From contig CM035358.1 of NCBI GenBank assembly GCA_020137815.1, forward strand, positions 3,534,001-3,598,000: a DNA stretch of 64,000 nt, written 5' to 3'. Each line of letters begins with the position of its first letter. Position 1 is the first letter of the stretch. The stretch comes from Hormiphora californensis. Its lineage: Eukaryota > Animalia > Ctenophora. Shown in pieces: positions 8,001 through 59,798 of this stretch. The translations under genes and the position numbers were made by a program. A model generated the notes under the pieces. It worked only from the letters and a program-made list of their open reading frames with translations. It ran no database searches and was not told the DNA's origin.

Positions 8001-11000
8001 GCACCAGCCAGTTAACAGGTTTACCTGGGATCTCCAGTCCACACTACTAGCGGCAGGAGCAGAAGAGAGGAGGGGCTCGGGCAGGACATTGACATCAGAG
8101 GTGAATGTTGAGACCAAGATAGGACTGTTTCTCAGCAGCAGTCATGCCACTGAACATGTTGACTCCTGATAGGGAATAATGTTTGTTAATTAAGGCTAAT
8201 GTTAGTTAATTAATGGCATGATTAATTAAGGGAATGTGTAATTAACAAGATAAATTGTTGAATATGATTGGCCTAGGGGGATCTGGATCTGGTAAATTAG
8301 TGGAGAACTCAAGAGGTGTATATTATCTATTGGGGTGTATTACAGGGAGAGATACAGGGAGAGAGGTGTATATTATCTATTGGGGTGTATTACAAGGGGT
8401 ATGGTTCTTACCAGAAGTCCAGTCGTTCTCCTTGTTCAGCTGCACCACTTTCTTCAGGTCAGCCCTGAACAGCCTGAATCGGAGGGGCTGCTCAGCGGCA
8501 CTGTACAGCTTCCCATACTTCGCACTGTACTCGTTGAAGAGGTTCTTCAGAGCTAGGGGGCTCTGGAGGACTCCCTCATAGTCGAGAGCAGCGGTCAGGC
8601 AGACGATGGACAGTAGAATCAGACACTTCATGATGATGAGAGATGTTGGGGAGTGAGCGGTGGGGTCGGAGTTTTATAGTGGGACAATGAACACCAGATG
8701 GGATACTGTGAGATCGGGCCAATCTGGTTAGCACTTATTTAGTGCTTTAGTCTCCACACCTTACCTGATTATTCTACTCTTACAGCGGCCGTTTATTTTA
8801 TTAGATACTGATTTTATATGCTAACTCGATAATGGCCGCCATAGCTCCCTCTTTTTTGACGCTTTATTAAGCTTTTTGAGGCTGCCCTGCAACTGTCAGG
8901 AGCCGGACAATCACGGCGCCAGACAGGCCCAGGACGTGAAAGGAGACTATGAGAGGGAGAGAGCGAGGGGGACCAAGGGAGAGAAATTCATTTTTTTGTT
9001 CAAAAAAAGACTAAATGAACATTTAGAGAGCGAGAGAGTGAAGAGTATTATGAGTTCTTCAAAGACATAACCATACCCCTTTTAGCATACCTATTATACG
9101 GGTTTCACTTGTCTCGTGCCTTTATTGCAGTGAAAGCATTCAAACCCATTAACTCAAGTATATTCCTGCGATAAAAGCATGTGACCTCCTCCCTCTCAAT
9201 GTGACCTCCTCCCCTCTCTCAATTGACCTCCTCCCTCTCAATTGACCTCCTCCCTCTCTAAATTGTCCTCCTCCCTCTCAATTGACCTGCTCCCCTAGCT
9301 CTCTAAATTGTCCCATATTTTCAGGTGCTACACTGCGTCCACAAGAACTGCAAGACCAGTAAATTGACGTCTGAAGCCGTGGCAGAGTTGACTCAGCTAA
9401 TGGACGGCCAGTCACCCAGGGAGGGTGAGAGTAGCTCCTGTTCTCTGGTTACCAAGGTTACAGAAACCGCAGAGGTGAGTTATAATACAGGGTGTTCACT
9501 AAATTGTTGAACTCTTTTCGATGTTATTCCAAATTTATTTATCATCCTGAATAATACGTAGCTTTTTGCTCCGTGGAAGACACCTTTTTGCCTTTCAGTT
9601 AGTTATCTCATTTCCAGTTATTTCGTATTCACTAAAGAGCAAAGATAACGATAATTTCAGCAATATTAAATAACACATAATTAGTACATCAAATATTGTT
9701 TACAATTATATAATAGAATATCTTCGTCCAGCATATTTATTACCAATATTTATTACCGATTACGATAGCTGTATTACGAATATGTACTTATTTTGTCTAG
9801 ACAAAATACTATACAAGATGTTAAACTACTACGAGTAAGCTGATAGCCTGTCTTTTAACAAGTTTCGGTGCATCATGACATCTCTCAGAATCTCTCCATT
9901 CAATTGAGTGAGAAGGTATATATTTCAAATCCATCTTGTCATTGAATTGCATGTAATGAGGTGAAAAGATATTCTGAGAGGTGTCATGACGTACCGACAC
10001 CTACTCGTGTGCTCCGCTCAGAACGGAGTGACAGAGTGGTCAGGCATCATGCTGAGACTGACAGCTGGTAACTGCCGACAATACCGACATCAAACATCAT
10101 CAATAATTATTATATAGAGTACTAATCGATATATTAGAGTTACAATCGAACAGCTCCTGAGCTCAATATGTCACACTAAATATCTGTCCACATACTATAT
10201 CCTATTCCACTTTCTTGGCCCCGTTCTCCTCAACAGTGACGGTAGAAGCGAGGGCTAGGGGTGCAATAACGAGCACATGGCACACAAGATGCATGGCAGC
10301 CATGGCAACATACCGCTCTACACCACTGGGTAGAACACCACACAGCACCACACTAACCATCACCATGACACCCAGTTGTAGGATCACCTCCCGTGTCATA
10401 TCACCCATGAGGGCGTGCTTCTGGGCGGGGGAGCGACCACCAGCGAAACTAACACACATATAGTAGAAGGGAGGTCCGAAGAGAAGGAAGAAGATGATGT
10501 AGGCATCACGGAACCTGGTCGTGGAGAAGAAGGAGAGGAAGGAGTAGGGGACACCAGCGTGAAACTCGTCATAAGAGCCAGAGTACATGAAGGTGTCGTA
10601 GAACATGCCCTGAAGGGGGGGGGCTGGTTTAGGAAGAACTAGTATTGAAAAAGAAAACGTAAATTATAGTGATATTGAGTTGAACAAAGCTAGTTTCAGG
10701 GAAACAGAAAGTGGTATATCACACTACCTGAGCAGTGAAAAACACAGTGAATGCTCCCAGGGAGGTTCTCATGAGTATTTTCACTCCAAAGTTCTGGAGA
10801 AGAAACATACTGATCCAATATCCTACCACTGTTATCATCTAGATCAAGGGTAGTTGTAGTTAGATCTGGACCTTCATTTGGGATCCAAATATATGGGGTC
10901 TTATAGGTGTATTAGTACTGGTGATAGCTGCAAGTTGTATCATATGTTGTCTCTGTTATAGGTACACGTGGCATGTGGGCTAAGCTATTAAACTTACCAC

Positions 11001-14000
11001 ATGTAGAAGAGTAGCAAAGGCAATAAGTGTGCTATCAGTAGTTTCACGCATCATAAAGCTGGTCTCCCAGTCAGTGTGTCGGTGCAGCACCCAATTCTCC
11101 ACCGGCACAAATGTGAAGGAAATCAACATTAGCAGAGAGGTGAAGTACCTGGGGGATTGAGGGATTAGCTTGAGCAGGGAGGTAAAGTACCTGGGAGAGA
11201 AGGGGGATTAGCTTGAGCAGAGAGGTGAAGTACCTGGGAGAGTAGGAGGGTTAGCTTGAGCAGAGAGGTGAAGTACCTAGGAGAGTAGGGGGGTTAGCTT
11301 GAGCAGAGAGGTGAAGTACCTGGGAGAGTAGGGGGGTTAGCTTGAGCAGAGAGGTGAAGTACCTGGGAGATTGGGGGATTAGCAGGGAGGTGAAGTACCT
11401 GGGAGAGTAGGGGGATTAGCTTGAGCAGAGAGGTGAAGTACCTGGGAGAGTAGGGGGATTAGCTTGAGCAGAGAGGTGAAGTACCTGGGGGAGTAGGGGG
11501 ATTAGCTTGAGCAGAGAGGTGAAGTACCTGGGAGAGTAGGGGGATTAGCTTGAGCAGAGAGGTGAAGTACCTGGGAGAGAGAGTAGGGGGATTAGCTTGA
11601 GCAGAGAGGTGAAGTACCTGGGAGAGAGAGTAGGGGGGTTAGCTTGAGCAGAGAGGTAAAGTACCTGGGAGAGTAGGGGGATTAGCTTGAGCAGGGAGGT
11701 GAAGTACCTGGGGGAGAGTAGGGGGATTAGCTTGAGCAGAGAGGTACCTGGGAGATTAAGAGGGATCATATGTGAGATAAAAATAGAGCTTCTCTGTCGA
11801 CTGTCATAAATTGTTTATTCCTTTTCGATTGGCTCAACATCATACCTTACTCTCGTTTTTTAAGAAACGCTTTAGTAAGAAACTTTTTTATAAGAAACTT
11901 TTCAAATGTAAATCACACTATTCAGAGACACCACAACAAAATAGAACACCCCTAACTTGTTTAGTTTCTTGATAAAGGAGAAAATCTTTTTGTTTTTGGA
12001 TTGCTAACACCTGTAGTTTCCTAGAAAAAAAGTTTCTTATTTAAAAGTTTCTTGAAATATGCGAGCTTAATTAACGAGAGTAAGGTATTTCACTCTGATG
12101 ATATACACTGTACCTGTTTCCCCAAATGTCCTTGACGTTGACCAGCTTGTGACTGGCACATGTTACACAGAAGGAGATGGTAGCGTACACCCAGAACGGC
12201 TCCAATACCAACATATCTTATCAAGAACTAACAAAACTTAGTTAATTGTGCTCCTAAACCATATATACTAGTACATGTCTTATTTAGAGCAGGTTCTACA
12301 ATGGTTTCAAGGACAGCAAAAAGGACAGATTATGAGTGACCAGGGGTCGGCACACAGTGCTATTATAGAAGCAAGAGCTGCTGCACACTGTACAAGGGGT
12401 CGAACAAAGACCAGTAAACAAATAAATGCATATATTTGTATACATATTTTATTTAGTATATGCAGCCGGCATACATTTTAATTCATGAGTTTTAAATCGC
12501 CATTTATAGTATAGAGGAGAATCATAGAGAAGTTTTAGAATGAATCTGCTGCACAATACGGCACGGAGATGGAACGATCTGCTTTACTCAGCTGTGGTGC
12601 TTGATTTCTTGTTAAAACCATCTGAATCCCAGATTACTAGGGCAGTACCACAAATTAAATACTATTACTGGTTGTTATGACTGAATACAATAAAGTTTGC
12701 CTTGTTTGAACAAAACAAAATAAAGTAGAAGGACGAATATACAAATGAATATTAGATATTGTTACTGCCAGCAGGAAAGTAGAAGGACAAAGAGAACCTA
12801 TACAAAATATGAAGATGAGCTAGTTACTGCCGGCGTGTACTGTTGATTAATTGCAAACTTTTCCTGGAACAACATTTCTATGCCGCTATATGTTGTACAC
12901 TCCCAGCTTTATGCTAATAACTGAGAACTAGGAGAAATATGGAGTTAGAAGAACCAGGAAAAAAAAGAGGAAATTAAAGTCTCATTTTCTTTTTTTCCTC
13001 GTTCTAACACGGCGTGCCTGGTGAAATTTTAACACGACCTAGCATGCGACGGGAAACCACCACTTGTACGTGGTAGCTGAGGGTCTACAGAATGGCGCTA
13101 CGGTGCGGGAAAAAACATTCCATTCCCTAAAATCGTTTTTTTTACTTTTATTTGATTTGGGTCAAAATTGGCTATATTAAACGTGGTCCCGAAAAATCCA
13201 TAATGACTTAGCACACGAAATATGTCACCCCTACCTATTTTTGCACGTAGAATCGATTGCCGTTGAAGTCGAATCTCTAAAATGACTGTAAAATGGTCAA
13301 AAGTTGATTTTTTACCATTTTTTGGAGGTTTTTGGCCCCTAAACCATTGAAAACGTTGAGATAGGGATTTGAAACTAGTGCCAATCGTTAAAATGGTCAT
13401 TTTTCTACCAAGAACCAAGTTTTCGTGTATATCCGATTTATGGTTAGATTTGGGCAAATTGTTGAAATCTGCCAACTAGGAGAACCGTAACTTGATTTTC
13501 TTGTTTTTTGGATTTTGGCATTTTTGACAGACTTCTGATTGAAATGGCCAGTCGGGACCATGCTTAAGTTGTTTATGGGACAATTTTCGACTAAAATCCA
13601 AGATTTCATACCAATCCAATAACAGATCGTTGATTTATAGAAAATTTGCGTAGGCAAAACGGTCAAAATAAGCAAGAAAAGTTGTTATTTTGACCGTTTT
13701 GCCTACGCAAATTTTCTATAAATCAACGATCTGTTATTGGATTGGTATGAAATCTTGGATTTTAGTCGAAAATTGTCCCATAAACAACTTAAGCATGGTC
13801 CCGACTGGCCATTTCAATCAGAAGTCTGTCAAAAATGCCAAATTCCAAAAAACAAGAAAATCAAGTTACGGTTCTCCTAGTTGGCAGATTTCAACAATTT
13901 GCCCAAATCTAACCATAAATCGGATATACACGAAAACTTGGTTCTTGGTAGAAAAATGACCATTTTAACGATTGGCACTAGTTTCAAATCCCTATCTCAA

Positions 14001-15272
14001 CGTTTTCAATGGTTTAGGGGCCAAAAACCTCCAAAAAATGGTAAAAAATCAACTTTTGACCATTTTACAGTCATTTTAGAGATTCGACTTCAACGGCAAT
14101 CGATTCTACGTGCAAAAATAGGTAGGGGTGACATATTTCGTGTGCTAAGTCATTATGGATTTTTCGGGACCACGTTTAATATAGCCAATTTTGACCCAAA
14201 TCAAATAAAAGTAAAAAAAACGATTTTAGGGAATGGAATGTTTTTTCCCGCACCGTAGCGCCATTCTGTAGACCCTCAGCTACCACGTACAAGTGGTGGT
14301 TTCCCGTCGCATGCTAGGTCGTGTTAAAATTTCACCAGGCACGCCGTGCTAACTCGATATGCTATTTCACAATATTAACCATCTACAAACTACATTTCCT
14401 ATCTACCGCACTAACCCCCCTCTCCTGTTGCAGTCAGTTCAAAAGTCTCTGGGAATTTCCCAGAAAACGGTGGATCTTCTCAGTCTGCTAATGCAACTGG
14501 TACTGGAATTCGTTGTGGGGGACAGTCTTGTATTATCTTGATGTGGCATCAGGTGACAACATATAGTTATTATTTTCAACATCTGTGCTAATATAATTGC
14601 CTCGCATAAAATTAAAAGTTGACATGATACCTAAAATAAAAGAAGACAGTCTACTAGAGACCGAGCACAGTAATGTAGAATGAGAATGCTAATAAAAAGG
14701 GTTATTTGCAAGATAGCAAGATACAGACCAGACAAAAGTGAGGATCATCTTAAAACCGATCAACTCAAATGGTTTCTCTTGATTGATTATCATGTCTGCT
14801 TCCTGATACCTTAATCAACCCCCATGGCTTCTCTCTGTCTGTCTCTCACTTACTCTCACCCACTCTTGACATCTCTCCCTATTTCTCACTCTTTCTCTCT
14901 CCACATCGATCTCCATCGACCTACCGAGACGGGTTTTAAAGCCTATAGGGTGTCGCGACAAATCGTTAGTAATACAGTTACATAGTTATCGGTTACTTAC
15001 TCACCTTCTTTCTCCCCTCTCTATCTCTCTCTCAGATCAGTCTGTATTCCCAGTCTGTATTTTAATCAGGGGGACTATCACGTGACAAATAAATAGCAAT
15101 CAGTTAATCGCCCTCGCTGTTTAAGTGGCCTCAAGAAACTTGAATAGTCACTCTGTTATAAGACAAAATATAATTCCTCATAGAAAGCAATTGAACTCAG
15201 TAGCCTAGTAGGTAATTGGTGTGGTGTCTTATACATAACATAAATATGGTTTGAGGCAACACTTAAGAAGGG

Positions 15273-15544: not shown

Positions 15545-18500
15545 TCTCTCGCTCTCCCTCTCCCTCTCTCCCTAGCCAACCACATGTTGTCCTATAATTA
15601 TAGGCCCAACCTATCCCATTATGCAGTACGTGATGGATTCGGCCAATGGTGTGGTGGCTGGTGGCATATGTAATATGTGTGGGAGTGGGCACCACTGTAA
15701 TTAGAGAGACCACTGTAATTAGAGAGACCATGCTTCTAGGGATGTAATTGCTTGAATAATTACATCCAGTTCTCACGAACCCACTGCACTAGAAACTTTA
15801 ACTGTACTTAACGTGAGAAAGAAAAATAGTTGAACCATGCATATTGCATACCATACAGTGAAAATTAAATTTTTAGAGACATGTCCACCCAATGACTTAT
15901 GACCCACCCCTTACTTAACAACAAATGACGGCTCAACTCATGGTGATGTCCCTTATAAATGACAGCTCAACGCTCTAGAACCATGACGCGATACACCATC
16001 AAATGACGTCATAATCGTGACGTCATTATCACGTGTTTCAGATGTTTGGTTGGCACTCGAACTGCTGGACGAAGACTCCTCTATTTCCTACGATAATGAG
16101 GCGCTCCAAGTTCTACTGTTCACGTTCATCCCCCAGGCTACCATCTCTCTTATTCAGGGTAAGGGCGAGTAGAAGTGTGACTCCACTAATTATACCACAA
16201 CTGTACCTCATGGTAGGTAATATTATGGAGTACCAATATAGCCAACCAATTAAATATATGTACTGCAAAGTATGTTCAAGTTACTTGTAGGTGATAAGTG
16301 TGTTTTGATGTAGGTGATAAGTGTGTTTTGATGTAGGTGATAAGTGTGTTTTGATAGCTTAGCAGTTAGCAATATCATAACACACTTGTCACTTGTCATT
16401 TTGCTATGTAATGGAAGACAACATCATGAAACATAAGTTACCAATATATTTGCAAAGTCACCACTTCGTGAGTTGTACGGGGTTTCAATGCTCTCTTGAG
16501 AAACTATGAGCCGGAGAATATAAATATTGAAATAAAGAGTAACTCTGACGATAAAAAAAGACAAATTAGTTCAAGTGTAGAAGTGTAGAAATATGATTTG
16601 TATTCACTGTGTACAGTGTACTAATTTACACTTTATACTGCTCAGGTATAAAATGCCTCTGGACTGGTGGTGGATCAAGAAGATCCATCTTCAGGGCTAT
16701 CATCTGTTTCATTGGATTTGGGCCACTACTAATTGGTATCGAATGTATCTACTACACACTAAGGTATAAAGTTAGGACTTAGCACTATAATCTGTAGAAT
16801 TCACAATACCCATATTACTGGGAAACCCACTCGCTTTGATAATCAACTCTCCAAGTTCCCCTAATCATAATCAACTCTCCAAGTTAATTAAGATGCTGCT
16901 CAGGTGGAATTATGAGAGTGAGTCGATAGCCCGTAAAGGTGGTGGGAGCAGTAAGACTAAAGGTGAAGAAAAGCCTCTCAAGGTAAATTATAATCAATCT
17001 CGCGATCTTTTGCGAGTTCTATTTCAAGGGGGCCTTGAGAAGGGGTTCATAATGATATTCAATCAATAAATTGCCAAAATACCTTACTGTCTAGTGCCTG
17101 ACGGTTCCTATTCAAAATAAAAAGCACGCTGTCGCTCAAAATGGGGGACAGCGGCGCGTGATTGTGACCAATTCTCCCTCCCCTAATCCTAATTCTCCCT
17201 CCCATAATCCCAATCTTCCACCCCCTCCACCCCAATTCTCCCTCCCCTATCGCTCAAAATGGGGGACAGCGGCGCGTTATTGTGACCGATAATAGATGGA
17301 CTCTGATCATCACACCTCGAATAAGAGACGTGAGGTCGTGAGTGGCACTCACTTAGTGCCTTTAGTTATAACTTGTTCCTTTTTTAGGCAAGCTCGAGAT
17401 TAATAATATTATGTATACAAAAGATAGCACTACACAATCGCACAAAGTGCAAATACACCATATATCTCGGGAGTCGGGTATATACTGCATAGAGAGTGGT
17501 TGATGCTCAGGGGGATGCAAATTAATTACAACTGAAGCCATGCTCTCCTTTCATTTCGAGTGTAGTGATATTTCTTCATCTCATTTTTCATGTCCTTTCA
17601 TTCACATTCTACTACAGTCGGACCCCGATTTAGGGACACCCTCGGGGGAAAGGCTCTTGTCCACTAAATCGGGGTGTCCACTAAATCGGGGTCAAATAAT
17701 GTTAATTTCCTATATCGGGGGATAAAAATCCTGTCCCTAAATCGGGGTGCCACTAAATCGGGGGCCACTAAATCGGGGTCCAACTGTATCAAGGGGGTGC
17801 ATTCTAACTCTAGTATCCTGTAGCGATGGCCATCAAATGACAATGTAAAAGATGTCTCCTAGTATCTTGATGGAAAAATTTTTTTTCTAATACCCACCCC
17901 TTCTTTACAGTGTTTACGGTGGTTTTACCCCCACCCCCTCAACCCCGATCTCCCCTCCCCAGTCCCCTCAACCCCGATCTCCCCTCCCCAGTCCCCTCAA
18001 CCCCGATCTCCCCTCCCCAGTCCCCTCAACCCCGATCTCCCCTCCCCAGTCCCCTCAACCCCGATCTCCCCTCCCCTGATCCCAATTCTCCCTCCCCTAA
18101 TCCCAATCTTCCACCCCCTCCACCCCAATTCTCCCTCCCGTAATCCCAATTCTCCCTCCCATAATCCCATAATCCCATAACTTTCTCCGCAGGATGTGCT
18201 GGACGAGTCAGTTGAGAAATGGAACACAATTCGAATCTGGGAGGCCTCTCTCGAAAGTGGACCCGAACTACTCCTGCAATTCTACATCGCGTTCTGTACT
18301 AACATCTACAGCATCACTTCCCTGACACTGTCCTTTGTGAGCCTGATCCAGGCAGCGGCGGAGTACTATTATTGTAAAGCTGATGGTAAGAAATTACCCC
18401 TCAACATATGAGCTCCCTATAAAGCGTAATATAGGGGTGACTGATCGTAACCAAAAGTTAGTAGTAGAAAGTAGTATAAGATAAAGCAAATCTGTATGGA

Positions 18501-21500
18501 AACATCCCGAACAGGATATGTACTAATAGTTATCACTTTACTCGGTTAATTTGATGAAATACACGCCAAGAAAATGTACAATATTTATTTAAAGATGTAC
18601 AGAGCTATTCATACAGTCTTAGAAACACATGTACACTGCTACTACCAACGGCCTACTGAACAGTATTTACCTCAGGTCACGACCACGGTAATATATTACA
18701 GCGCGAGTTATATAGTGTATCATATTCATAGTGCAAGAGGCCTGCATTAGCACGAACAGCAGCTGTTCGTGCTAATGCAGGCCTCTTGCACTATGATACA
18801 CTATATAACTCGCACTGTAATATATTACCGTGGTCGTGAGCTGAGGTAAATACTCCGTCATGAGCTAGCTGTGAAAAGATTATATTTTATATTTCACAGC
18901 GATTATGAAATGGTATTGTCATTGTTCATCCGGGGGTGCCCCTCTCTTTGTGTGCGAAATCACGATAATATTATGATTAAAAAAATCAGTAATCATGTAG
19001 AACTAGCACCTATACACTGGTTGAGAGAGTATTAGTTATTTCATACTGAACGCAGCGGCCTAATGATTTGAATAAAGAATATTCCCTTAAAGCGAATGAA
19101 TTAGCAGTTCTCGAAAATCGCTAATTCCTCGCTTTAACTGCTTCACTTTTTAACTGCATAACTTGTCACTGGTTTAAGGTGAGTGAGATTCTCACTTGGT
19201 AATGAAATTCCCCCTCTGCGCTAGCTATATGCAATAAATAGGGGTGACTTCGTAACCAAGATTCTCACTGTAACTCACACTCAGATCATAACGGGCCAGA
19301 GATTTACTAGGGAACACATATATGCATAACTGGTTGAGTAACTCACAATACATATAACTTGTTGGATAGTTACTGAGCTGCTCTGCGAGTTGATCTTGTG
19401 GTGGATCATGTGCACAATATCATGAATATATATGTGATAACCATTCAACACTCGAGACATGTACTGCTGCACCTCTCACACCGACTCTTATTTCTATCGA
19501 TATACAACATATGCAGAGAACACACGCGAGTTTTCTGAATTTGTTGTGAGTTCAACAAAACCCTCCCCATCTCTGCAGGTGCTATTGGGTACTTCCCCCA
19601 CCTGATCGTATTGAGTGTAACTACCATCCTGCTTCTGGTATCTCGCCTTACCGCTGCATTCGTCTTTATCTTCCAGTTCGGGGTAGGTGCTGATGTTACT
19701 TACATTGTTAGACTCACTCAGAGGTGACTCAGAGGTGACTCAGAGGTGACTCAGAGGTGACTCAGAGGTGACTAAGAGGTGACTCAGAGGTGACTCAGAG
19801 GTGACTCAGAGGTGACTGAGAGGTGACTTAGCGGTGACTGAGAGGTGACTAAGAGGTGACTAAGAGGTGACTGAGAGGTGACTGAGAGGTGACTAAGAGG
19901 TGACTAAGAGGTGACTAAGAGGTGACTGAGAGGTGACTAAGAGGTGACTCAGAGGTGACTCAGAGGTGACTGAGAGGTGACTAAGAGGTGACTAAGAGGT
20001 GACTCAGAGGTGACTCAGAGGTGACTAAGAGGTGACTCAGAGGTGACTCAGAGGTGACTCAGAGGTGACTCAGAGGTGACTAAGAGGTGACTAAGAGGTG
20101 ACTCAGAGGTGACTGAGAGGTGACTAAGAGGTGACTAAGAGGTGACTCAGAGGTGACTCAGAGGTGACTAAGAGGTGACTCAGAGGTGACTCAGAGGTGA
20201 CTAAGAGGTGACTCAGAGGTGACTCAGAGGTGACTCAGAGGTGACTGAGAGGTGACTGAGAGGTGACTGAGAGGTGACTCAGATGTGACTCAGAGGTGAC
20301 TCAGAGGTGACTCAGAGGTGACTCAGAGGTGACTGAGAGGTGACTGAGAGGTGACTCAGATGTGACTCAGAGGTGACTGAGAGGTGACTCAGAGGTGACT
20401 GAGAGGTGACTCAGAGGTGACTGAGAGGTGACTAAGAGGTGACTAAGAGGTGACTGAGAGTTGACTAAGAGGTGACTCAGAGGTGACTCAGAGGTGACTG
20501 AGAGGTGACTAAGAGGTGACTAAGAGGTGACTCAGAGGTGACTCAGAGGTGACTCAGAGGTGACTCAGAGGTGACTCAGAGGTGACTAAGAGGTGACTCA
20601 GAGGTGACTGAGAGGTGACTAAGAGGTGACTCAGAGGTGACTCAGAGGTGACTCAGAGGTGACTCAGAGGTGACTAAGAGGTGACTCAGAGGTGACTCAG
20701 AGGTGACTCAGAGGTGACTGAGAGGTGACTCAGAGGTGACTGAGAGGTGACTGAGAGGTGACTGAGAGGTGACTCAGATGTGACTGAGAGGTGACTGAGA
20801 GGTGACTCAGAGGTGACTGAGAGGTGACTCAGAGGTGACTAAGAGGTGACTAAGAGGTGACTGAGAGGTGACTAAGAGGTGACTCAGAGGTGACTCAGAG
20901 GTGACTGAGAGGTGACTCAGAGGTGACTGAGAGGTGACTAAGAGGTGACTGAGAGGTGACTCAGAGGTGACTAAGAGGTGACTAAGAGGTGACTGGGAGG
21001 TGACTGAGAGGTGACTCAGAGGTGACTCAGAGGTGACTGAGAGGTGACTTAGCGGTGACTGAGAGGTGACTAAGAGGTGACTAAGAGGTGACTCAGAGGT
21101 GACTAAGAGGTGACTCAGAGGTGACTGAGAGGTGACTGAGAGGTGACTAAGAGGTGACTAAGAGGTGACTCAGAGGTGACTAAGAGGTGACTCAGAGGTG
21201 ACTCAGAGGTGACTCAGAGGTGACTGAGAGGTGACTGAGAGGTGACTGAGAGGGGACTCAGATGTGACTGAGAGGTGACTCAGAGGTGACTCAGAGGTGA
21301 CTCAGAGGTGACTCAGAGGTGACTGAGAGGTGACTGAGAGGTGACTTAGAGGTGACTCAGAGGTGACTCAGAGGTGACTCAGACCACTGAATTAACTTTG
21401 TACACATAATCTCACTCTCACTGTTTTAGTAGATCCCCAATTTCCTGGGATCCTTGGGGTAAATTGGGTGCCGGTAAATCGGGTGCCGGTATATCGGGGT

Positions 21501-24054: not shown

Positions 24055-27000
24055 TTACATGAACGGCTTCTTCATTTTACCGATCACATTTCTTGGAAAA
24101 GCAGCTATTTGACATTTCCACGTATCAGCGCTGTAGTCCCTCAAAAATGCCAACTTTGAACCTTGCTCCTCGTGCCTCTGACTCAGTTTCCGGCACAAAA
24201 AGTTAGAATAACTGAATGAATCTCTTTGGGGTAGAGATCTGAGGACCTCCGTTATATTGGTATTATCAAAGTCCACCACTGGTAAAATGTCCTCCTTGCC
24301 CCTCATCCCTAAATGGTGGGTCTGCTGGTGCCGGTACATTGTCTGCTGGGCTCCTTTGGTCCTGATCTTGGTTCATTGGAAGGGGGTCTCTTAACAATTG
24401 ACATGGATCTTGTAAACTTGACATAACCACTATTGTCTACCCTCCTGCAAGGTACTGTTCCTCTGGTCTGGTCCTGGGGGTTCATCTGCCACTGGTACTT
24501 GGGTACTTTGATCCTACTCAAGCCCAACTCTTCCCTCCTTCTCACCTCCTTCTCCTGCTGCATCCTGCGTCTGTTCTGGAATCTCATTATCCTCTCTCCG
24601 TACTTGTGTGCCCGGCCACCGGCTGTAGCATTCTGGACAGTCTTGTGGAAACCGAGGAATCTAACTCGATTTGATTCGTCTTCCTCTCTTCGAAGCTGTT
24701 TAACTGTCTTCGCTAGAACTGTCTGTTGGAATGATAGGGAGATTAATTGGTCGACTTTCCCATAAGTCTAGTTACGTTAGATAACTCATCTGAGTTATCT
24801 GGGTCAGGGTGATAGGTGGAGACCTCAGTTGCCTGGGAGGGTGATAGGTGGAGACCTCAGTTATCTGGGTCAGGGTGATAGATGGAGACCTCAGTTACCT
24901 GGGAGGGTGATAGGTGGAGACCTCAGTTACCTGGGAGGGTGATAGGTGGAGACCTCAGTTACCTGTGAGGGTGATAGATGGAGACCTCAGTTACCGGGGA
25001 GGGTGATAGGTGGAGACCTCAGTTACCTGGGAGGGTGATAGGTGGAGACCTCAGTTACCTGGGAGGGTGATAGGTGGAGACCTCAGTTACCTGTGAGGGT
25101 GATAGATGGAGACCTCAGTTACCTGTGAGGGTGATAAGTGGAGACCTCAGTTACCTGTCGTAAATATGGTATTGACTTGACATCAGTCAATACCATGCTA
25201 GGGCCAGGGGAGAGAAAGAGAGATACATTATAGCTTTTAGCACTGCATGCTAACTCTATCTCTCTCTCTCTCTCACTCCCTTCCCCTCTTTCGTCTGCTT
25301 TCCTTCCCCTTTCATTCTAGATCCTTCTCTCCCAGGGAGAGATGGAGAGAGTGAGAGAGAGGGAGAGAGAGAGATAGTGCGGCGCGGCTCTTATTTAATT
25401 AAGTCCCGAAGAGTGATAGCGTTTGTCTGCTTTCCACGTGACCACCCCATGTGACCCGATGACGAGGGAGAGCCTAGCCAATGAGGATCAGAGAAGAGGA
25501 CACGTGATATCTCGCCCCCGTGAGGCCAGACGGAGAGGAGCCTCACTTCTCGGATTGCAAGATCCACTGACGTTTGATTCTCTGTATTGGGCTGGAACTG
25601 CTGCGTTGTGGTGCCCTCTGAAGAGATCTCTCGGATTGCTTTTATTTACCTATCTATTACTTGGCACTTCGAGAACCCCTGTGTTTCTTTTGTTTTATAG
25701 TGTGTTTTCCCACATACCTGTGAGGGTGATAGATGGAGACCTCAGTTACCTGTGAGGGTGATAGATGGAGACCTCAGTTACCTGGGAGGGTGATAAGTGG
25801 AGACCTCAGTTACCTGGGAGGGTGATAGGTGGAGACCTAAGTTACCTGGGAGGTTGATAGGTGGAGACCTCAGTTACCTGGGAGGGTGAGAGGTGGAGAC
25901 CTCAGTTACCTGGGAGGGTGAGAGGTGGAGACCTCAGTTACCTGGGAGGGTGATAGGTGGAGACCTCAGTTACCTGGGAGGGTGATAGGTGTAGACCTCA
26001 GTTACCTGGGAGGTTGATAGGTGGAGACCTCAGTTACCTGGGAGGGTGATAGGTGGAGACCTCAGTTACCTGGGAGGGTGAGAGGTGGAGACCCCAGTTA
26101 CCTGGGAGGGTGAGAGGTGGAGACCTCAGTTACCTGGGAGGGTTGATAGGTGGAGACCTCAGTTACCTGGGAGGGTGATAGGTGGAGACCTCAGTTACCG
26201 GGGAGGGTGAGAGGTGGAGACCTCAGTTACCTGGGAGGGTGATAGGTGGAGACCTCAGTTACCTGGGAGGGTGATAGGTGGAGACCTCAGTTACCTGGGA
26301 GGGTGATAGGTGGAGACCTCAGTTACCTGGGAGGGTGATAGGTGGAGACCTCAGTTACCTGGGAGGGTGATAGGTGGAGACCTCAGTTACCTGGGAGGGT
26401 GATAAGTGGAGACCTCAGTTATCGGGGAGGGTGATAGGTGGAGACCTCAGTTACCTGGGAGGTTGATAGGTGGAGACCTCAGTTACCTAGGAGGTTGATA
26501 GGTGGAGACATCAGTTACCTGGGAGGGTGAGAGGTGGAGACCTCAGTTACCTGGGAGGGTGATAGGTGGAGACCTCAGTTACTTGGGATGGTGATAGGTG
26601 GAGACCTCAGTTACCTGGGAGGTTGATAGATGGAGACTTCAGTTACCTGGGAGGGTGATAGGTGGAGACCTCAGTTACCTGGGAGGGTGATAGGTGGAGA
26701 CCTCAGTTACCTGGGAGGTTGATAGGTGGAGACATTAGTTACCTGGGAGGGTGATAGTTGGAGACCTCAGTTACCTGAGAGGGTGATAGGTGGAGACCTC
26801 AGTTACCTGGGAGGGTGAGAGGTGGAGACCTCAGTTACCTGGGAGGGTGATAGGTGGAGACCTCAGTTACTTGTGACAGGGTGAGAGGTGGAGACCTCAG
26901 TTACCTGGGAGGGTGAGAGGTGGAGACCTCAGTTACCTGGGAGGGTGATAGGTGTAGACCTCAGTTACCTGGGAGGGTGATAGTTGGAGACCTCAGTTAC

Positions 27001-29273
27001 CTGGGAGGGTGATAGGTGGAGACCTCAGTTACCTGGGAGGGTGATAGGTGGAGACATCAGTTACCTGGGAGGGTGATAGGTGGAGACCCCAGTTACCTGG
27101 GAGGGTGTCAGGTGGAGAACTCAGTTACCTGGGAGGGTGATAGGTGGAGACCTCAGTTACCTGGGAGGGTGATAGATGGAGACCTCAGTTATCGGGGAGG
27201 GTGATAGGTGGAGACCTCAGTTACCTGGGAGGGTGATAGGTGGAGACATCAGTTACCTGGGAGGGTGATAGGTGGAGACCCCAGTTACCTGGGAGGGTGA
27301 TAGGTGGAGACCTCAGTTACCTGGGAGGGTGATAGGTGGAGACCTCAGTTACCTGGGAGGGTGATAGGTGGAGACCCCAGTTACCTGGGAGGGTGATAGG
27401 TGGAGACCTCAGTTACTTGTGACAGGGTGAGAGGTGGAGACCTCAGTTACCTGGGAGGGTGATTGGTGGAGACCTCAGTTACCTGGGAGGGTGATAGTTG
27501 GAGACCTCAGTTACCTGGGAGGGTGAGAGGTGGAGAACTCAGTTACCTGGGAGGTTGATAGTTGGAGACCTCAGTTACCTGGGAGGGTGATAGGTGGAGA
27601 CCTCAGTTACCTGGGAGGGTGATAGGTGGAGACCTCAGTTATCTGGGTCAGGGTGATAGGTGGAGACATCAGTTACCTGGGAGGTTGATAGGTGGAGACC
27701 TCAGTTACCTGGGAGGGTGATAGTTGGAGACCTCAGTTACCTGGGAGGGTGATAGGTGGAGACCTCAGTTATCTGGGTCAGGGTGATAAATGGAGACCTC
27801 AGTTACCTGGGAGGGTGATAGGTGGAGACCTCAGTTACCTGGGAGGGTGATAGTTGGAGACCTCAGTTACCTGGGAGGGTGAGAGGTGGAGACCTCAGTT
27901 ACCTGGGAGGTTGATAGTTGGAAACATCAGTTACCTGGGAGGGTGATAGGTGGAGACCTCAGTTACCTGGGAGGGTGAGAGGTGGAGACCTCAGTTACCT
28001 GGGAGGTTGATAGGTGGAGAACTCAGTTACCTGGGAGGTTGATAGGTGGAGACCTCAGTTACCTGGGAGTTTGATAGGTGGAGACCCCAGTTACCTGGGA
28101 GGGTGATAGGTGGAGACATCAGTTACCTGGGAGGGTGATAGGTGGAGACCTCAGTTACCTGGGAGGGTGATAGGTGGAGACCTCAGTTACCTGGGAGGGT
28201 GATAGGTGGAGACCTCAGTTACCTGGGAGGGTGATAGGTGGAGACATCAGTTACCTGGGAGGGTGATAGGTTGAGACCTCAGTTACCTGGGAGGGTGATA
28301 GGTGGAGACCCCAGTTACCTGGGAGGGTGATAGGTGGAGACCTCAGTTACCTGGGAGGGTGATAGGTGGAGACCTCAGTTACCTGGGAGGGTGAGAGGTG
28401 GAGACCTCAGTTACCTGGGAGGGTGAGAGGTGGAGACCTCAGTTACCTGGGAGGGTGAGAGGTGGAGACCTCAGTTACCTGTGAGGGTGATAGGTGGAGA
28501 CCTCAGTTACCTGGGAGTTTGATAGGTGGAGACATTAGTTACCTGGGAGGGTGATAGGTGGAGACCTCAGTTACCTGGGAGGGTGATAGATGGAGACATT
28601 AGTTACCTGGGAGGGTGATAGGTGGAGACCTCAGTTACCTGGGAGGGTGAGAGGTGGAGACCATAACACGACTCCTGATCGGAATCTAACAGACTAATAT
28701 CAAGACCATGGCGGTAGGATAACCTCTTAGCTTCACTCATAGGAACCTCGTCTCTAACGGTGTCTAACAGTGCACGCCGACTTATTTCCGTATCTGTATG
28801 GTTAAGATATTTTTTATATGTTGTTGTTCAGCGGCGCCGACCCGATCTGAGCGCACTGTAGTCTGTCTGGCGCCGCGACCCATCTGAGAATCAAATGGGG
28901 TATGGCGCCGCCATACAGACTGTAGTGCAATGTTTGAGGATAAAAAACGGGCACCCCGCTCGGCGCCGCCAGTGGTCGACCACAGACTTCCTGGAGCGTC
29001 TGGAGTAACATGCTTTGCATAAACTGATTGGTGGGTGGCCTTGCTACGGCAGAGTGGTGGACGTGCTGGGGCGCCTAATAAGCGTGCTCGGTGCGGCCGC
29101 CGCTACTTTCGAACAGGTCATCCGCCAGACGCAGCAAGTGCAACTACAAACAAACAAAACGGGCACCTTCAGACAGCTCTAAAAGGGACCTAGATAAACA
29201 TACTTATTTTGGAACAGGAAACATTAGCCACAGGGACGTGACTGAGACGCCGTAAAAAAGGAGGTCGTTGCAT
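24055..29273 (-). CDS. Uncharacterised basic protein (~300 aa), 3 exons
   Basis: Exons ~29204-29273 (MQRPPFLRRL..), ~28639-28793 (..CYGLHLSPSQ|GTAACT) and 24055-24722 (TVLAKTVKQLRREE..) are phase-compatible. One probable single-base deletion at ~24350 joins ORFs 24309..24587 and 24055..24339. Confidence 0.6.
24790..28662 (-). repeat. 32-bp tandem array (~100 units) of exon end plus splice donor, interrupted by a solo LTR
   Basis: Minus-strand unit GTCTCCACCTATCACCCTCCCAG|GTAACTGAG; the first unit is the in-frame end of the upstream exon. Confidence 0.95.
25156..25714. mobile_element. Solo LTR (559 bp), probably Gypsy/Ty3-type
   Basis: TGT...ACA termini; 4-bp TSD TACC at 25152-25155 and 25715-25718; it cleanly interrupts one repeat unit. 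Confidence 0.8.
28863..28918. mobile_element. 56-bp MITE with 8-bp TSD
   Basis: CTGTCTGGCG..CGCCATACAG; TSD ACTGTAGT; inverted copy at 59691-59747. Confidence 0.8.
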
Positions 29274-29833
29274 TAGGATTGCATTAGGATTGATAGATTT
29301 CGACAACGACTACTTCAGGTGAAGTCAGAATGGAGTCGATAAACTGACAGAGTCGACAAAGAAAACGTACTGATATGTCTAGAGAGAAGGATCAGAGAGT
29401 GTCAGAGTGGGAGACATAGCTTAGAGTTGGGGTAGATGCGTACTGGGAGGGTATATCACGCACCCCGGACACCACCGTGCCCAGATGAGTAGCGGTGATT
29501 AAACAACAGGCAGATGTGAATTTCGGCTACTTAATCAACGGTGTTAGCATGTGATGGCACTTTCTCACGGTGCATGGTATGGCAACGCTTCTCCTCTCCA
29601 TCTGAAGTCAGCGACTGAAGCATGTAGCACAAGAAATCTCGCTACGAGCAGAGCTCGAGCCGACGCATCACGCTATCGAGAGGCGGCCCGACACGAGAGA
29701 AGTGAGCTGCATAGTCGCTGAGACTCGAGCTGCAGCTCTAGAGACGAGAAGAGTAGAGAGAGAGAGTAGAGAGAGTCATATTCCCCTCGTAAATCGTCCA
29801 TCTCATTCGCCATTCTCTATACTTCCTCTTCCT

Positions 29834-33700: not shown

Positions 33701-36700
33701 GTTCTGGGCCTTGTTACAGGTTGGAATGTCAGGGACAAGCATGTCCTTTCCGTTCTCATAGCTCTGGTAGCAGTACTTGCGGGTGTACTCGGGGAAATAG
33801 CCATCATTACACCTGTATTCAGCATACCACCGCCCGTCCTCATATCCCTCATTACCCTTCATACCATTATCAATGGAATCAGGGAACTCACAGTTCTCCA
33901 TGCACGTGGGGTACTGGTGATCGTCGACCTTTCCATTCTCGTTGGTACACCTAACCTCCCCACCACCATAGTTGGCAAACGAATATCCATTGTCACAGGA
34001 GTATTTCGCGGTAGGACATCCCTCATCAACCCACGAACCGTTGTAGTTTCCATTTTCGATAGAATCCTCGAAACTGCAGTTATTCTCGATACACTCGGGA
34101 ATGTTTTTCTCCCCAGCAGCGTTGTTGATATCGCAAGACGCCCAATTGTTGCACCACTTCGCCCTGAAGCCATCATTGCATTCATACTTAGCAGAGGTAC
34201 CCCACTCGTCTGTTTTCCTTCCGTTTTCAATCTCGTCGGGGAAGTTACAGCTCCTGCACTCAAACGGAACTCTTTCCTCTTTCTCATTGTCCCACACAGT
34301 AACGGAGAGGGTGCAGTTGTTACAGGAATCATAGTCACACTGCATATCCCAGTACCTTGATCTATCCTCGTTGGTCATAGGACACATGTGTTCCCCACAC
34401 CCCTGATTATCCCAGCATTCCTCCTTAGCATTTCCATTGTCACAGAAGAAGTTGCCCTTGTCGTATGTGGTTTCCATGTCCCATTTGGTAAAGTCGACAG
34501 ACCTTGGGACGGCCATGATCATGTTCATCACCTCTGGTCCCATGGTCATACCAACCATAAGGGCGTTGAGGTCATCCAAACCGAACCTTTTAGCAGCAGC
34601 CATACCACTGACAGCAAAGTCAGAGAACCTCATGGTGACAAGATTGGAGAGACCCTTGAGAATGGGGAACATGTAGGCACTGGTAGCACCATCAACCCCC
34701 AGCTCGTACTCCCGAGGGAAGGAGAGATATCGCTTATCATCATCAGAAGTACACTGTTTCTCAGCCTCGTTAGTGAGTTCAGCAGCCTCATGTAGCCAGT
34801 TCAGGAGGTAACATCCAGGATTCTCGTAGAGGTGCTCCCACTCAGCAGCAGCTCTTCCTGCCTTCTTGCCATCATAATCAGGGCATGCCTCTTCAAACCT
34901 AGCCTCCCAGTTCATGAAGTAACAGATCATCGCACTGGTGGAGTTAGCAGTCCAGGCATCTTCGAAACTGGAAGCCTCAGCGACGCCCTCAGCCTCACAT
35001 TTCTCCAGAATCCTGTGGTTGGCAAGGAGAATGGAACAACTATCAAGTCGGAAGTCGACAGCAATATCCAGCATGTTGTATCCCTCACGGAGGACGTTGT
35101 GTTCCATACATTCAGCCTCAGAGGTGGCTCCCCAGTAGGGCGTGTTGAGGTCAGTGTGGCAGGGTATACAGTTGTCACCGTCCAGGCCGTAGGAACCGAA
35201 GGGACAAGGGGTACACTCCAAGTTGTCAGCAGTGTAATACCCTGCCTTGCATGCCTCGCACGTCACTAAGAGGGGGAATTAGTTAATTGGATAATAATTA
35301 GTTAATTGGATAATAATTAGTTAATTGGATAATAATTAGTTAATTGGATAATAATTAGTTAATTGGATAATAATTAGTTAATTGGATAATAATTAGTTAA
35401 TTGGATAATAATTAGTTAATTGGATAATAATTAGTTAATTGGATAATAATTAGTTAATTGGATAATAATTAGTTAATTGGATAATAATTAGTTAATTGGA
35501 TAATAACTAAGGGGTAGAGACTAATTATATGGGTTGCATACAAGATGGTAGCAAGCGGCTGTACGGATCGTGTGGCCTTATCAACTCGGGTCGATACAAA
35601 GCGGTATTGGGTACACAACGTGATATCACACATTCCCATAAATATGGGATTAATAAATCTGGGATGCCTAGTGTGTGTGTGTGTGTTCGGTACCTCCCGT
35701 CGTTCCACCCCATGCTGAGGTTATTGATGACCCCTCAGCCGGCCCGTTACTGACCTCACTCCTTGCCAGATGACCCCCACACACAGGGTCACTGTCGGTA
35801 TGATTCCACTTAGATTCCACTGGTTTCCCAGCAGTCTCTTTGTGGTACCGCAAAAGGAGCATGCGAGTCTGTGTCGGGTTTGGCACGGAGAAATCTTTCC
35901 CCGCAGACATGTGATGGGACTTACCTTCCGATTGGATGGTCTTTGGTTACCACTGTCACGACAACTGTGGAAGTAGGTGATTTGCCGGATATCATTGATT
36001 ACCTATCAAGGGATTAAATGCTTATCTTTACACCAGGGGTCTTGTAGTCTAAGCTAGCTAGTAATGTATTCACAAGTACGACCCAAGGGTCCGGTCAGGC
36101 GATGTTGCCATCGCCGGGTGGCCAGGTTATAGATTAGTTGCTGTAAAACAACGTCTATGGTTGTCCCTGAGTGCATTTGACCAGTATCAGTTCACTCAAG
36201 GCTTCGCGTAATTAATGCGAGGGGTCTCAGTGTAAGCGTGTCTGCTATTTGAATAAGGGTACCATTGTTTAAGTGTCCCAAACTGTAATGGGCTTTTCCC
36301 TGACTACTAAAGGGTCTTTCAGATTTGTAGGTTTGTCACTTGCCTTGTTTTGGGGTGTGCGTGTCTGAGGCTCGGTGATTTGTTGTAGGTGTGGAGATCA
36401 CGCATGTGCGGAGCTTGGGATTAGGGGGGGGGGGGTAGGGTGTGTCTGAGGAGTCTAGAACTTGGGCTTGGAACTGTGCGCGCAGTTTGTTCGGCCTGGT
36501 CGGACTTTGTTCACCATGGCGTTTTCGCGCGTTACGTTTGAAATAGTGGTAGGGTAAGTTATTTTGTGTCTAGATCTGTTTTTTGGAACAAATAGGGTGT
36601 GGGGGTTAAATAGGCAGAGGTTTTTAGGTGCAAATTTGGGCAGGGGTTCCCCAGGGGCGACCAGCCCCTACTTGGTTATTACTGGGTTTATCTCTGCCCT

Positions 36701-39700: not shown

Positions 39701-41253
39701 CCTTCATCTGAGGTCCTGGAAGAGGGGATTCAGTGTCAGTGAGCATGAATTAATAGGAAAATATAACCTAAACTCATATTTAATTAAAATTATGATTTTA
39801 ATTAACTGCGTATAATTAACTCACTCGCAGTTGTCGACGTTAAGGCTCTGGATCTGGAGGTTGCTAACTACCCATGAGTGTCTCAGAGATGTTGGTACAC
39901 ATGTCCCCAGTCACGGAGACATCAAGGAAGATCCTCATCATGAAGGAATTGTGGTTCCTACTGTTCCTGTCTGAGAAAAGAGGGGGGATAGGATAAAGGA
40001 TCAATGGATAGTATGGGGGTGTAAAGAGCTGTAATAGTGAATAGTGATACCCAAGGGCTAAATTCTAACACCTATTGTCCATGATGGAGACTACTTCGGA
40101 GTTCGGTTGCTATGGTAACCAGACGAAACTCTCTTAATACAGCATGTAGCAATCTATGATAGCTTCATCTCTCCATGCTTGCAAGAGGGCCCCACACACA
40201 GTGGGATGATGATATGAATAAGTCTGGATGATTGGAGGGACAAGCAATATATATTGATTGGTGCTGTCTCTCTTTCATCAATAATACTGTCTGTACAATT
40301 GTACTATACGATCAGCCAGTATGAGAGAGATGCGGCAATCCTAACATCAATCCCAACATGATATGACCCCAATGCATGTGTCTATACCCACGCATTAAAA
40401 TATTACCTACCCACACGGCCACACATTGGTCCTGGCTGGTAGCATATAGTGTAACATAGTGTAACATCAATCTAACATGACCCTAACATGACCCGCCTAA
40501 CATGTAGTTAAAAACTATTACCTACCCACACATTGGTCCTGGCTGGTAGCACCCACGTCGAACGTGGTACCATCCCAACACCATTGGCACTCAGTACTGT
40601 CCTGTCTTGTTGTTGTAAGTACCGACCATGCAGGGGGCACAGTAGTCCACCATTAGACCCTCATCATTGTATGTCCCTGGAGTGGGGGGAGGGGTGTTAC
40701 AAGTAGTAGGGTCGGGAGTGGGGGGTGTTACAAGTAGTAGTAGGGTCGGTAGTGGGGGATGGGGGGTGTCAACTGTATGTCAACAAGACAAGAGTACAAA
40801 TTATATAGAGAATGTAATACTTAATCCGTATGAAAAATTGTCAGTAATTCTAAATTAACGATAATTTCCCATTACTGATTCACATTACTGATTCCCATTA
40901 CTAATTCCCATTACTAATTCACATTACTAATTTTCCATTACTAATTCACATTACTAATTCCCTAATTATTAATTACCTGCAGGACAGTCAAGGCACTCAG
41001 CAGTTCCAGCTGTAGACCATGACTGGTATTGGCCGGATGGGCAGGATTGTGCCTGGTCGAATTGCGCGTGTACAGTTCCCGCTACCAGGAGCAGCAACTG
41101 AGGGGAGTGGGGTGTTAGAATAGAATGGGTATCGTGTAAATAAATTAGAGGTTGAATTGTTCTGACTAAAAAATAATTAGAAAAATACTTGAGCGGGACC
41201 TAATTGCTAAATATTTTAAGATGACTTACAAAAATATTTCTCAGTTGATTCAT
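30793..41253 (-). CDS. Large secreted protein: signal peptide, GCC2/GCC3 (ephrin-receptor-like) Cys repeats, ~9 CCP/Sushi domains, SRCR domain and a C-terminal Cys-containing domain
   Basis: Exon 1 41230-41253 (MNQLRNIF) then LLLLVAGTVHA. GCC motifs CPAGTY and CPFGSY..GATSEAEC. Sushi repeats CxFP..IENG..A.Y.C.DG. SRCR motif GRV..W..CDDDFNDNAAGAICRSLGY. Giant exon ~31911-35264; last exon 30793-30992. Several apparent +1 frameshifts (~40595, ~39871, ~32718). Confidence 0.88.
31718..31885. repeat. 10-bp intronic tandem repeat CTCTCAATAT
   Basis: Direct reading, ~16 units. Confidence 0.95.
35277..35507. repeat. 19-bp intronic tandem repeat AGTTAATTGGATAATAATT next to an acceptor
   Basis: ~12 units; the minus strand carries a CTAAT branch-point-like motif in each unit. 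Confidence 0.95.
35674..37069 (-). mobile_element. ~1.4-kb non-autonomous non-LTR retroelement-like insertion
   Basis: 15-bp TSD CTGGGATGCCTAGTG at 35659-35673 and 37070-37084; (CA)n tail at the minus-strand 3' end; no long ORF. Confidence 0.6.
37818..39071. mobile_element. Tc1/pogo-type non-autonomous element with internal ~395-bp tandem duplication
   Basis: TA|CAGTCGGACCCCGATTTAGTGGC...CTAAATCGGGGTCCGACTG|TA. Duplicated ORFs 38399 and 38794 reflect the duplication; each copy contains a ~240-bp imperfect hairpin. Confidence 0.85.
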
Positions 41254-42746: not shown

Positions 42747-43897
42747 TAATAATAATAATATAATAATATTCCGCGCTTATATACCGCCCATACCCGACGG
42801 AAACATGTCAAAATATTGGCGATGCTCCGCCTGGTCATCAGAGCGGTATATCCTCGAGTAAATATATGACACACACAAACACTCTGGTTGAAAAAGACAA
42901 TATATAGAAGCCGATATAACTGGACTTATAAAACTGGTGGAATAACTGGTCCCATAAACCTGTAGATATAAATTTAAAACACGCTATACTCACACCTGCT
43001 AGGGAAAAAAGTTTAAACTAGGTAGTGATTTAATAGCATGCCTAGAGAGAGGATGACACCGATTGCCCGCAGGCTCCACAACTACAACAAACATTACAAC
43101 TCAGCCGCGGGTTCCCCATCACCCACTCCAAATGCACCAACGAAGAGATGTGTCTTCAGACGGGCCTTGAATGTATCCACATTGGGGATTGACCTGAGCT
43201 CAAGAGGTAACTCATTCCAAATAGTAGGCAGGAGCACTGATAGTCTCCTACGTCTCAACTTAGAGTTGGCGTTGATGCTTGTCATCTTTGGGTGTTTTAA
43301 TCTGTACGGATCAGTAACACTAGTCATCCTTGTTGTCCTGGAGAGACCCCAGCTGTCATCAAGTGGCACCATTTCCTGGAGGTAACGGGGTGCTGTTCCA
43401 TAGACTATCTTGTAGGCGATCAGACAGGCTTTGAAGTCCAGTCTGTAGGAGATGGGCAAGATATGGCACTGCCTGAAGTATTCCAAATAGCTTTCCTGGT
43501 GTCCATGGATGTTGTATATAAAGCGCACACAGGCGTTAAGAAGTTTCTGGAGCCCACTGAGAACTCGACCTGGAAGTCCACAGTACAGTATGTTACTGTA
43601 ATCAATTCTTGATATGATCAATTGTTTGACCAACATTATCTTTGTTGGAATATCAAAACACCTGTGCAACTGCCAGAGATTCCGTAATGCCAATCCACAC
43701 TGTTTCCTCACATTGTTAACCTGTCGTTCAAGATTGAGATTGTGATCCAAGAGGATTCCAAGGGTTTTCCCGGTTGTTCCACTACATTCACTAGGGGAGA
43801 TTTCTGTTCCTCCAAAGTTAATGACTGGATCGAAAGTGACCTTGCCTAAGGAACTGCGCTTTCCAAGAAGGATGAATTCTGTCTTAGCCTCGTTTAA
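42747..43897 (-). mobile_element. 5'-truncated LINE (L2/CR1 group), RT C-terminal part and 3' UTR
   Basis: LNEAKTEFILLG, LGILLDHNLN, LIISRIDYSNILYCGLP, IWNELPLELR..FKARLKTHLF; (TTA)n 3' tail at ~42747-42767. Confidence 0.9.
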
Positions 43898-44294
43898 AGT
43901 TTTAGGTGGCACCGCTGTACTGTAGCTATACAAAACTAAATTCATAGAGGGGGCGCCATACAACTATTTCGGCCTTCTCTTATATATATATTACTCACTG
44001 TATAAAAATCACGTGATCCTGACGTCACACGTGTGTGCACGAGAAAAATCTTACCTGCTTGCTTGACTATCCAAAACTCCGATTCTTTTGGGCTGTTCTT
44101 TTGAGACATGTCTCGCAGCTAGTAGTACAAAAGGGTGGGTGTTAAATATAATACAGAATTAGAAATTAACGAGAATGAATTCAACACAGGGTAATTTAAA
44201 ACTTTACTGATCTTAATTACACTACAGTAGAACCTCACAAATAGGTTTCTGACAAATACAGGATAGCTACAGTACAGCGGTGCCACCTAAAACT
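43898..44294. mobile_element. Kolobok-like MITE inserted at the LINE 5' end
   Basis: TTAA|AGTTTTAGGTGGCACCGCTGTACTGTAGCTAT ... ATAGCTACAGTACAGCGGTGCCACCTAAAACT|TTAA. Confidence 0.85.

Positions 44295-59054: not shown

Positions 59055-59798
<744 letters not shown>

Follow-up and report, generated by a model that had tools for sequence, protein, structure and literature searches.

A 32-bp minisatellite that probably spans a 5' splice junction and takes up much of an intron of the ctenophore Hormiphora californensis

Human minisatellites that span a splice junction have been described in F7 intron 7 (37 bp, 5-9 copies), CBS intron 13 (15-20), 6-16 intron 2 (25 pseudo-sites), LMNB2 and PDGF intron 4 (Borensztajn et al. 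2006, PMC1557585). In F7 minigenes, the most upstream working donor was chosen, that is, the first of the identical donors (PMC1557585). In amphioxus, 'mirage' minisatellites occur in Adh3 and in the globins BflGb6 and BflGb9; reverse-transcription PCR showed splicing to be undisturbed, and it was suggested that the mirages could supply material from which new introns arise (Ebner et al. 2010, PMC3087553). Ratchet points of recursive splicing have been described in Drosophila and vertebrates, mostly in introns over 10-24 kb and with one to seven per intron (review PMC8758631), and lariat data place them in introns of varied lengths (10.1101/2022.12.22.521701). In the Rogers model of intron gain, both splice sites arise from copies of one exonic AGGT (PMC3443670; also PMC2812944). 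Our literature searches found no paper on junction-spanning minisatellites in ctenophores, and recursive splicing was combined with variable number tandem repeats in one review, whose retrieved passages draw no link between them. Here, we analyzed 64,000 nt of the Hormiphora californensis genome (GCA_020137815.1, contig CM035358.1, 3,534,001 to 3,598,000, forward strand), hereafter the window, in whose coordinates all positions are given. A predicted intron of a minus-strand gene in it carries about 103 tandem copies of a 32-bp unit, and this arrangement is likely a large case of the junction-spanning minisatellite class already described.

Repeat array and host gene

The 32-bp unit consists of the final 23 nt of the segment 28639-28793 and the following 9 nt, read on the minus strand. 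Tandem Repeats Finder (TRF) resolved the array into two blocks of 91.8 and 11.3 copies with 93% matches (Table 1). The array begins 23 nt ahead of the first GT and stops 9 nt past the last AG. The sequence CAG/GTAACT, in which the slash marks the junction, occurs at 90 sites, the first junction among them, and AG/GTAACT at 91. When cut at the junction, the array gave 103 pieces of 41 types, of which one contains an insert, one is a 6-nt remnant and 94 are 32-mers with a mean of 0.99 differences from the consensus unit. Rare variants of the unit come back 2-4 times at scattered spots, as a genuinely amplified array should show. Since neighbouring genes carry single-base frameshifts in the assembly, the number of copies may not be exact. 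The array thus has tandem, head-to-tail units of minisatellite size, and a splice signal is reiterated through the intron. Metagenome scans with the unit returned 0 matches.

According to the preliminary description, the intron was built from copies of its own 5' junction. This stands insofar as the array probably spans the end of exon 2 and its donor, but two parts of the intron are not made of the unit. The first is an insert of 559 bp between the blocks; it has TG...CA termini, is flanked by a target duplication of 4 bp and landed at a repeated donor. From these hallmarks we take it to be solo-LTR-like (long terminal repeat); no second copy was found within the window. The second is a unique tail of 76 nt past the last unit, ending in the acceptor at 24723, and the whole intron measures 3916 nt. 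Where the array ends on its 3' side, a perfect inverted repeat of 10 bp (24779-24800) folds over the last junction copy, and the tail starts with it.

The host gene was modelled from its protein relatives. A HMMER search with the exon 3 protein (24312-24722) returned 7 matches, six of them credible, unnamed relatives; P0022, a spurious match of repetitive sequence, was dropped, and P0020 did not enter the profile. A profile of 13 relatives was run against 2736 six-frame fragments of the window and ranked exon 3 first (109.4 bits), another frame at 24058-24372 second (11.2 bits) and exon 2 third (7.9 bits). Joining the exon end at 28639 to 24722 gave a model of 212 aa that scored 127.1 bits, compared with 109.4 bits before joining, and that is colinear with the relatives across the junction; the linker there measures 21 aa, and those of five relatives 14-23 aa (17 in P0016, counted by eye from the alignment). 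The relatives are distant, single continuous proteins from contigs of up to 102,771 bp and come without gene structures. The exon-intron structure proposed in the preliminary description, in which the exon ending at 28639 is joined to 24722, therefore agrees with the homology and is likely to be right.

The C-terminal motif of the family continues in another frame at 24058-24372, with a shift after about 24312-24372. This frame break is likely an assembly error, since a cathepsin gene (twice) and a sushi gene also show single-base frameshifts, but it may mark a broken allele. In total, four frameshifts were seen in three otherwise open genes (about 8100, 6880, 32700 and 24312-24372), all likely to be assembly indel errors. 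Word-index protein searches with exon 3 found no relatives, either among 97 candidates of 75-240 aa or among 510 of 241-2000 aa; no Pfam family was found for exon 2 or exon 3, the best match of an Atlas search (0.75) gave no lead, and metagenome scans for related loci produced 30 pattern matches with 0 confirmed. In a search of sequencing runs, exon 3 drew a single run (X1, share 0.00). When aligned, X1 gave 33 short diverged pieces without a splice joint on 6720-11128 and 0 pieces on 28663-29800; both stretches lie outside the array, and the lack of matches carries no weight regarding expression.

Table 1. Features of the host gene and its repeat-bearing intron
Feature	Position	Strand	Basis
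Predicted coding exon 1, from the ATG to a phase-1 donor (GTATGT)	29204..29273	-	Ab initio; frame fits exon 2; without homology support
Coding exon 2; its last 23 nt form the first partial repeat unit	28639..28793	-	Profile match and gain in joined score
First donor CAG/GTAACT, the only full-frame one among the AG/GTAACT copies	28633..28641	-	In silico joining and donor score
Main minisatellite block, 32-bp unit, ~92 copies	25715..28662	-	TRF and unit splitting
Solo-LTR-like insert, 559 bp	25156..25714	.	Ends and target duplication; strand unassigned
Second minisatellite block, ~11 copies; last three junctions without GT	24793..25157	-	TRF and unit splitting
Non-repeat intron tail, 76 nt, with TTAAT branch-like motif and acceptor	24723..24798	-	Sequence and splice scores
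Possible 23-nt micro-exon of an acceptor-side model	24776..24798	-	130.4 bits; needs a -2.7-bit donor and a 53-nt intron
Coding exon 3, conserved core of an unnamed protein family	24309..24722	-	HMMER relatives and profile

Donor choice, history of the intron and the acceptor likeness of the unit

To score splice sites, 36 introns in 10 genes of the window were annotated by hand, and position matrices were built from the 35 introns other than the focal one. Joined exons were stop-free in 6 of the 10 genes, two more contained frameshifts and two were imperfectly resolved; Pfam anchors some of the exons. The donor CAG/GTAACT scored 9.3 bits (83rd percentile), and the terminal acceptor at 24723 scored 10.6 bits. 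When the GT positions were joined in silico to the 24722 acceptor, only 2 of 235 kept the conserved core in frame, namely 28638, which is the first donor (9.3 bits), and 28629 (-1.2 bits). The 91 AG/GTAACT donors yielded one product of 212 aa, one of 88 aa and 89 of 86 aa. Later donors truncate the protein at 86-88 aa because unit 2 opens with an in-frame stop. The earlier argument that one donor must be picked is thus borne out, with truncation from 90 of the 91. The insert also generates a decoy donor, CAG/GTATGT, which at 10.9 bits is stronger than the array donor.

These results favour a history in which the 32-bp segment was amplified inside an older short intron and the exon-adjacent donor is used, and we hold this to be the probable one. 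The segment over the exon end and the 5' splice site would have been copied by ordinary minisatellite slippage or unequal exchange within an older intron of about 76 nt. Such growth in an older short intron is suggested because the unique 76-nt tail holds the acceptor: once the array is collapsed in silico, an intact intron of 76 nt remains that has an acceptor of its own and approaches in length the shortest of the 36 window introns (88 nt). Two further observations speak for it, namely that the first donor is intact while donor copies at the 3' end have decayed, GT being replaced by AT, GC and AT in the 3'-most three, and that the LTR-like insert lies inside the array. The spliceosome would take the exon-adjacent first donor and excise the 3.9-kb intron, the copies being unneeded; by analogy with the human F7 experiments, use of the first donor is likely. 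Transcripts leaking to later donors would meet the stop and would probably be lost via nonsense-mediated decay. A splice into an internal unit would recreate an identical donor and leave the mRNA unchanged, hence silent. Occasional internal-unit splicing would therefore be harmless and need no selection, because the donor is rebuilt and the mRNA is identical.

The tail bears equally on the Rogers-type origin suggested before, that is, intron gain through precise or imprecise tandem duplication of an exonic AG/GT segment. The unit does contain AG/GT with good donor and acceptor scores, and the relatives are continuous proteins whose genes may lack this intron. In its precise form, however, the model makes the last copy the acceptor, with coding resuming beyond it (PMC3443670), whereas the acceptor here lies 76 nt past the last unit in unique sequence. 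The unit acceptor plus tail fails to rebuild the frame: stops follow the last unit, 76 nt is not a multiple of 3, and adding the tail would lengthen a linker that already matches the relatives. We consider such an origin very improbable. An array of complete mini-introns was also considered and rejected, for the phase in which the array begins and stops is wrong for it and the shortest intron of the window is 88 nt.

The likeness of each unit to a ratchet point, an acceptor joined directly to a donor, is real, as the preliminary description had it. The consensus unit scored 13.8 bits as an acceptor (77th percentile) and the exon end 16.1 bits (91st percentile), while none of 632 AG sites in coding exons reached 13.8 bits and only 2 of 20000 letter shuffles of the unit gave an equally good acceptor plus donor. 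A strong 3' splice site is directly joined to a 5' splice site at 89 of 172 AGGT sites. This acceptor likeness is the strongest point for recursive splicing, in which the units would serve as zero-length-exon ratchet points and the intron would be excised in steps of at least 2 units, each internal unit rebuilding CAG/GTAACT and leaving the mRNA unchanged. Consistent with it, the longest junction-spanning arrays of the window (about 103 and 15 copies) both carry YAG/GT, and the two without it have 9 and 2 copies.

Several observations nevertheless make stepwise removal unlikely. The consensus unit lacks YTRAY, and this motif lies 12-45 nt upstream in 13 of the 89 strong AG/GT sites, compared with 20 of the 35 real introns; its absence at the other 76 sites is a weak point in itself, as only those 20 real introns have it. 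A single 32-nt step falls far under the 88-nt minimum. Described ratchet points are few per intron and kilobases apart, in introns over 10-24 kb (PMC8758631), whereas a 3916-nt intron with sites 32 nt apart falls outside the classical category of very long introns. AG/GT is not conserved beyond other positions of the unit: among the 94 32-mers its four positions changed 4, 1, 5 and 0 times and the average position 2.9 times, so that AG/GT varies about as much as the unit at large, with the reservation that the 94 units are not independent. AG/GT is also frequent at ordinary junctions of the window, with AG before 15 of 35 donors and GT after 13 of 35 acceptors, so that copies of a junction will often resemble ratchet points here. 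Finally, the array at 11131-11745, described below, looks alike and has branch motifs in 14 of its 15 copies, yet use of a first-copy donor has no role there. If stepwise removal were true, AG/GT units of this kind would in effect excise themselves, evade selection and outgrow other junction repeats; recursive splicing would then be born from a repeat in a 4-kb ctenophore intron, which would explain the cost-free growth of some junction repeats.

The acceptor strength would be accounted for if the unit were instead a genuine 3' splice site present in about 100 copies. In that case exon 2 would end at 28668 (or 28662), the last unit would serve as acceptor for a 23-nt micro-exon, and a 53-nt intron would come next; in a historical variant, this arrangement is the ancestral one, and exon 2 took in the first unit afterwards. 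Such models scored 130.4 and 127.9 bits against 127.1, and two of the three other junction-spanning arrays of the window copy an acceptor. The donors they require, however, score -2.7 and -2.5 bits (the weakest of the 35 real donors has 3.7), and about 90 strong donors follow a short way downstream. The unexpanded first intron would have been 23-29 nt long and the second is 53 nt, against the 88-nt minimum. Eight alternative models were enumerated, and among these a 3-bit gain in a poorly conserved linker is unremarkable. That the terminal unit spans the exon boundary is supported by protein homology and splice scores, while the acceptor-side model would put the boundary at the other end; we regard the latter as unlikely.

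Amplification within an older short intron, although preferred, has several points against it. It does not fully explain the acceptor likeness: at 16.1 bits the exon end outscores the actual acceptor (10.6 bits) as well as every one of the 632 coding AG sites. Under this history the acceptor look is treated as chance or as an expansion bias of C-rich DNA. Arrays rich in G/C runs did make up 4 of 12 with at least 4 copies, against 3.4% of background, but the test is weak for the focal unit, whose G-run score ranks no higher than the top 11% of background. No change was seen at donor positions +2 to +6 among the 94 32-mers; invariant positions number 12 of 32 overall. Exon 2 by itself has weak homology (E 0.32), and the rival three-exon model scores slightly higher. 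Moreover, human CBS and 6-16 also use two pseudo-donors, so that exclusive use of the first donor is not guaranteed (PMC1557585).

Junction arrays and other features of the window

Tandem repeats make up 13% of the Hormiphora genome (PMC8527503). In the window, 42 merged minisatellite arrays were obtained, 26 of them in annotated introns, of which 35 were counted after setting aside a host intron that contains a nested gene. Four of the 26 intronic arrays span a junction, compared with 2.3 expected (P 0.20), and enrichment of junction-spanning repeats, for which the preliminary description proposed a genome-wide test, is thus not significant within the window. An array edge lay within 40 nt of a junction in 13 cases against 8.2 expected (P 0.037), or in 12 of 25 against 7.9 without the focal array (P 0.063). 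In a repeat-rich genome with short introns, arrays at junctions are therefore close to chance.

Of the other three junction-spanning arrays, one repeats a donor; the remaining two repeat an acceptor, in 9 and 15 copies. The array at 11131-11745 (minus strand) has a 43-bp unit with 15 acceptor copies, each with a pyrimidine tract and YAG/GT and, in 14 of the 15, a CTAAT or CTAAC branch motif; its donor scores 7.9, and it is a better ratchet-point look-alike than the focal array. Its host gene has a weak match to Mpv17/PMP22 (E 0.043). The other two lie in a papain-family cathepsin gene (minus strand), in which the last acceptor occurs in 9 copies and a repeat of 2.3 copies covers one of the donors (6407-6714 and 7284-7356). 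This gene is apparently nested in an intron of a plus-strand gene with exons near 5861-5941 and 9325-9424. Arrays at 35277-35506, 7765-7846, 17935-18169 and 40691-40758 copy branch-point or pyrimidine-tract DNA and stop 11-24 nt before the acceptor. An 11-bp AG/GT unit in 152 copies (19716-21383, plus strand) occupies almost the whole of one intron (1747 nt) in an XK-related gene, leaving 33 nt on the donor side and 46 nt on the acceptor side.

Further features were noted in the window. A 60-bp segment in intron 1 of the host gene (28863-28921) repeats at 59688-59747 with 97% identity and is probably a small mobile element. Long palindromic duplications at 13098-14258 and 61-977 carry identical open reading frames (ORFs) on opposite strands and are foldback-element-like. 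An ORF of 289 aa (43094-43963, minus strand) had no significant Pfam match; it resembles the C-terminal part of a LINE (long interspersed nuclear element) reverse transcriptase. Over 49% of its length, an aldo-keto reductase shares 92% identity with a Pleurobrachia bachei protein.

Comparison with known systems

The array is likely a very large natural example of an arrangement already described, which it would bring to ctenophores. It is also a good test substrate, with about 90 identical donors, each a good acceptor as well, and unit variants that allow reads to be placed. Were stepwise removal true, recursive splicing would be tied to repeat expansion.

Compared with the human F7 type, the locus is alike in that the first monomer lies over the exon-intron boundary with identical pseudo-donors behind it, and the downstream donors break the frame. 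It differs in having about 100 copies rather than 5-25, in an exonic share of 23 of 32 nt rather than 4 of 37 in F7, in that each unit is also a strong acceptor, and in its ctenophore host. As in the amphioxus mirages, boundaries are duplicated in tandem at both donor and acceptor ends, several per region and with AG/GT signals; unlike there, the copy number is much higher and the phylum is another one. The described ratchet points differ from this array of about 90 sites, which come from one repeat, lie 32 nt apart in a 3.9-kb intron and mostly lack a branch motif. With introns of the Rogers model, the locus shares a duplicated segment that contains AGGT, but here the acceptor lies outside the duplication and the duplicated segment comprises exon and intron, not exon only.

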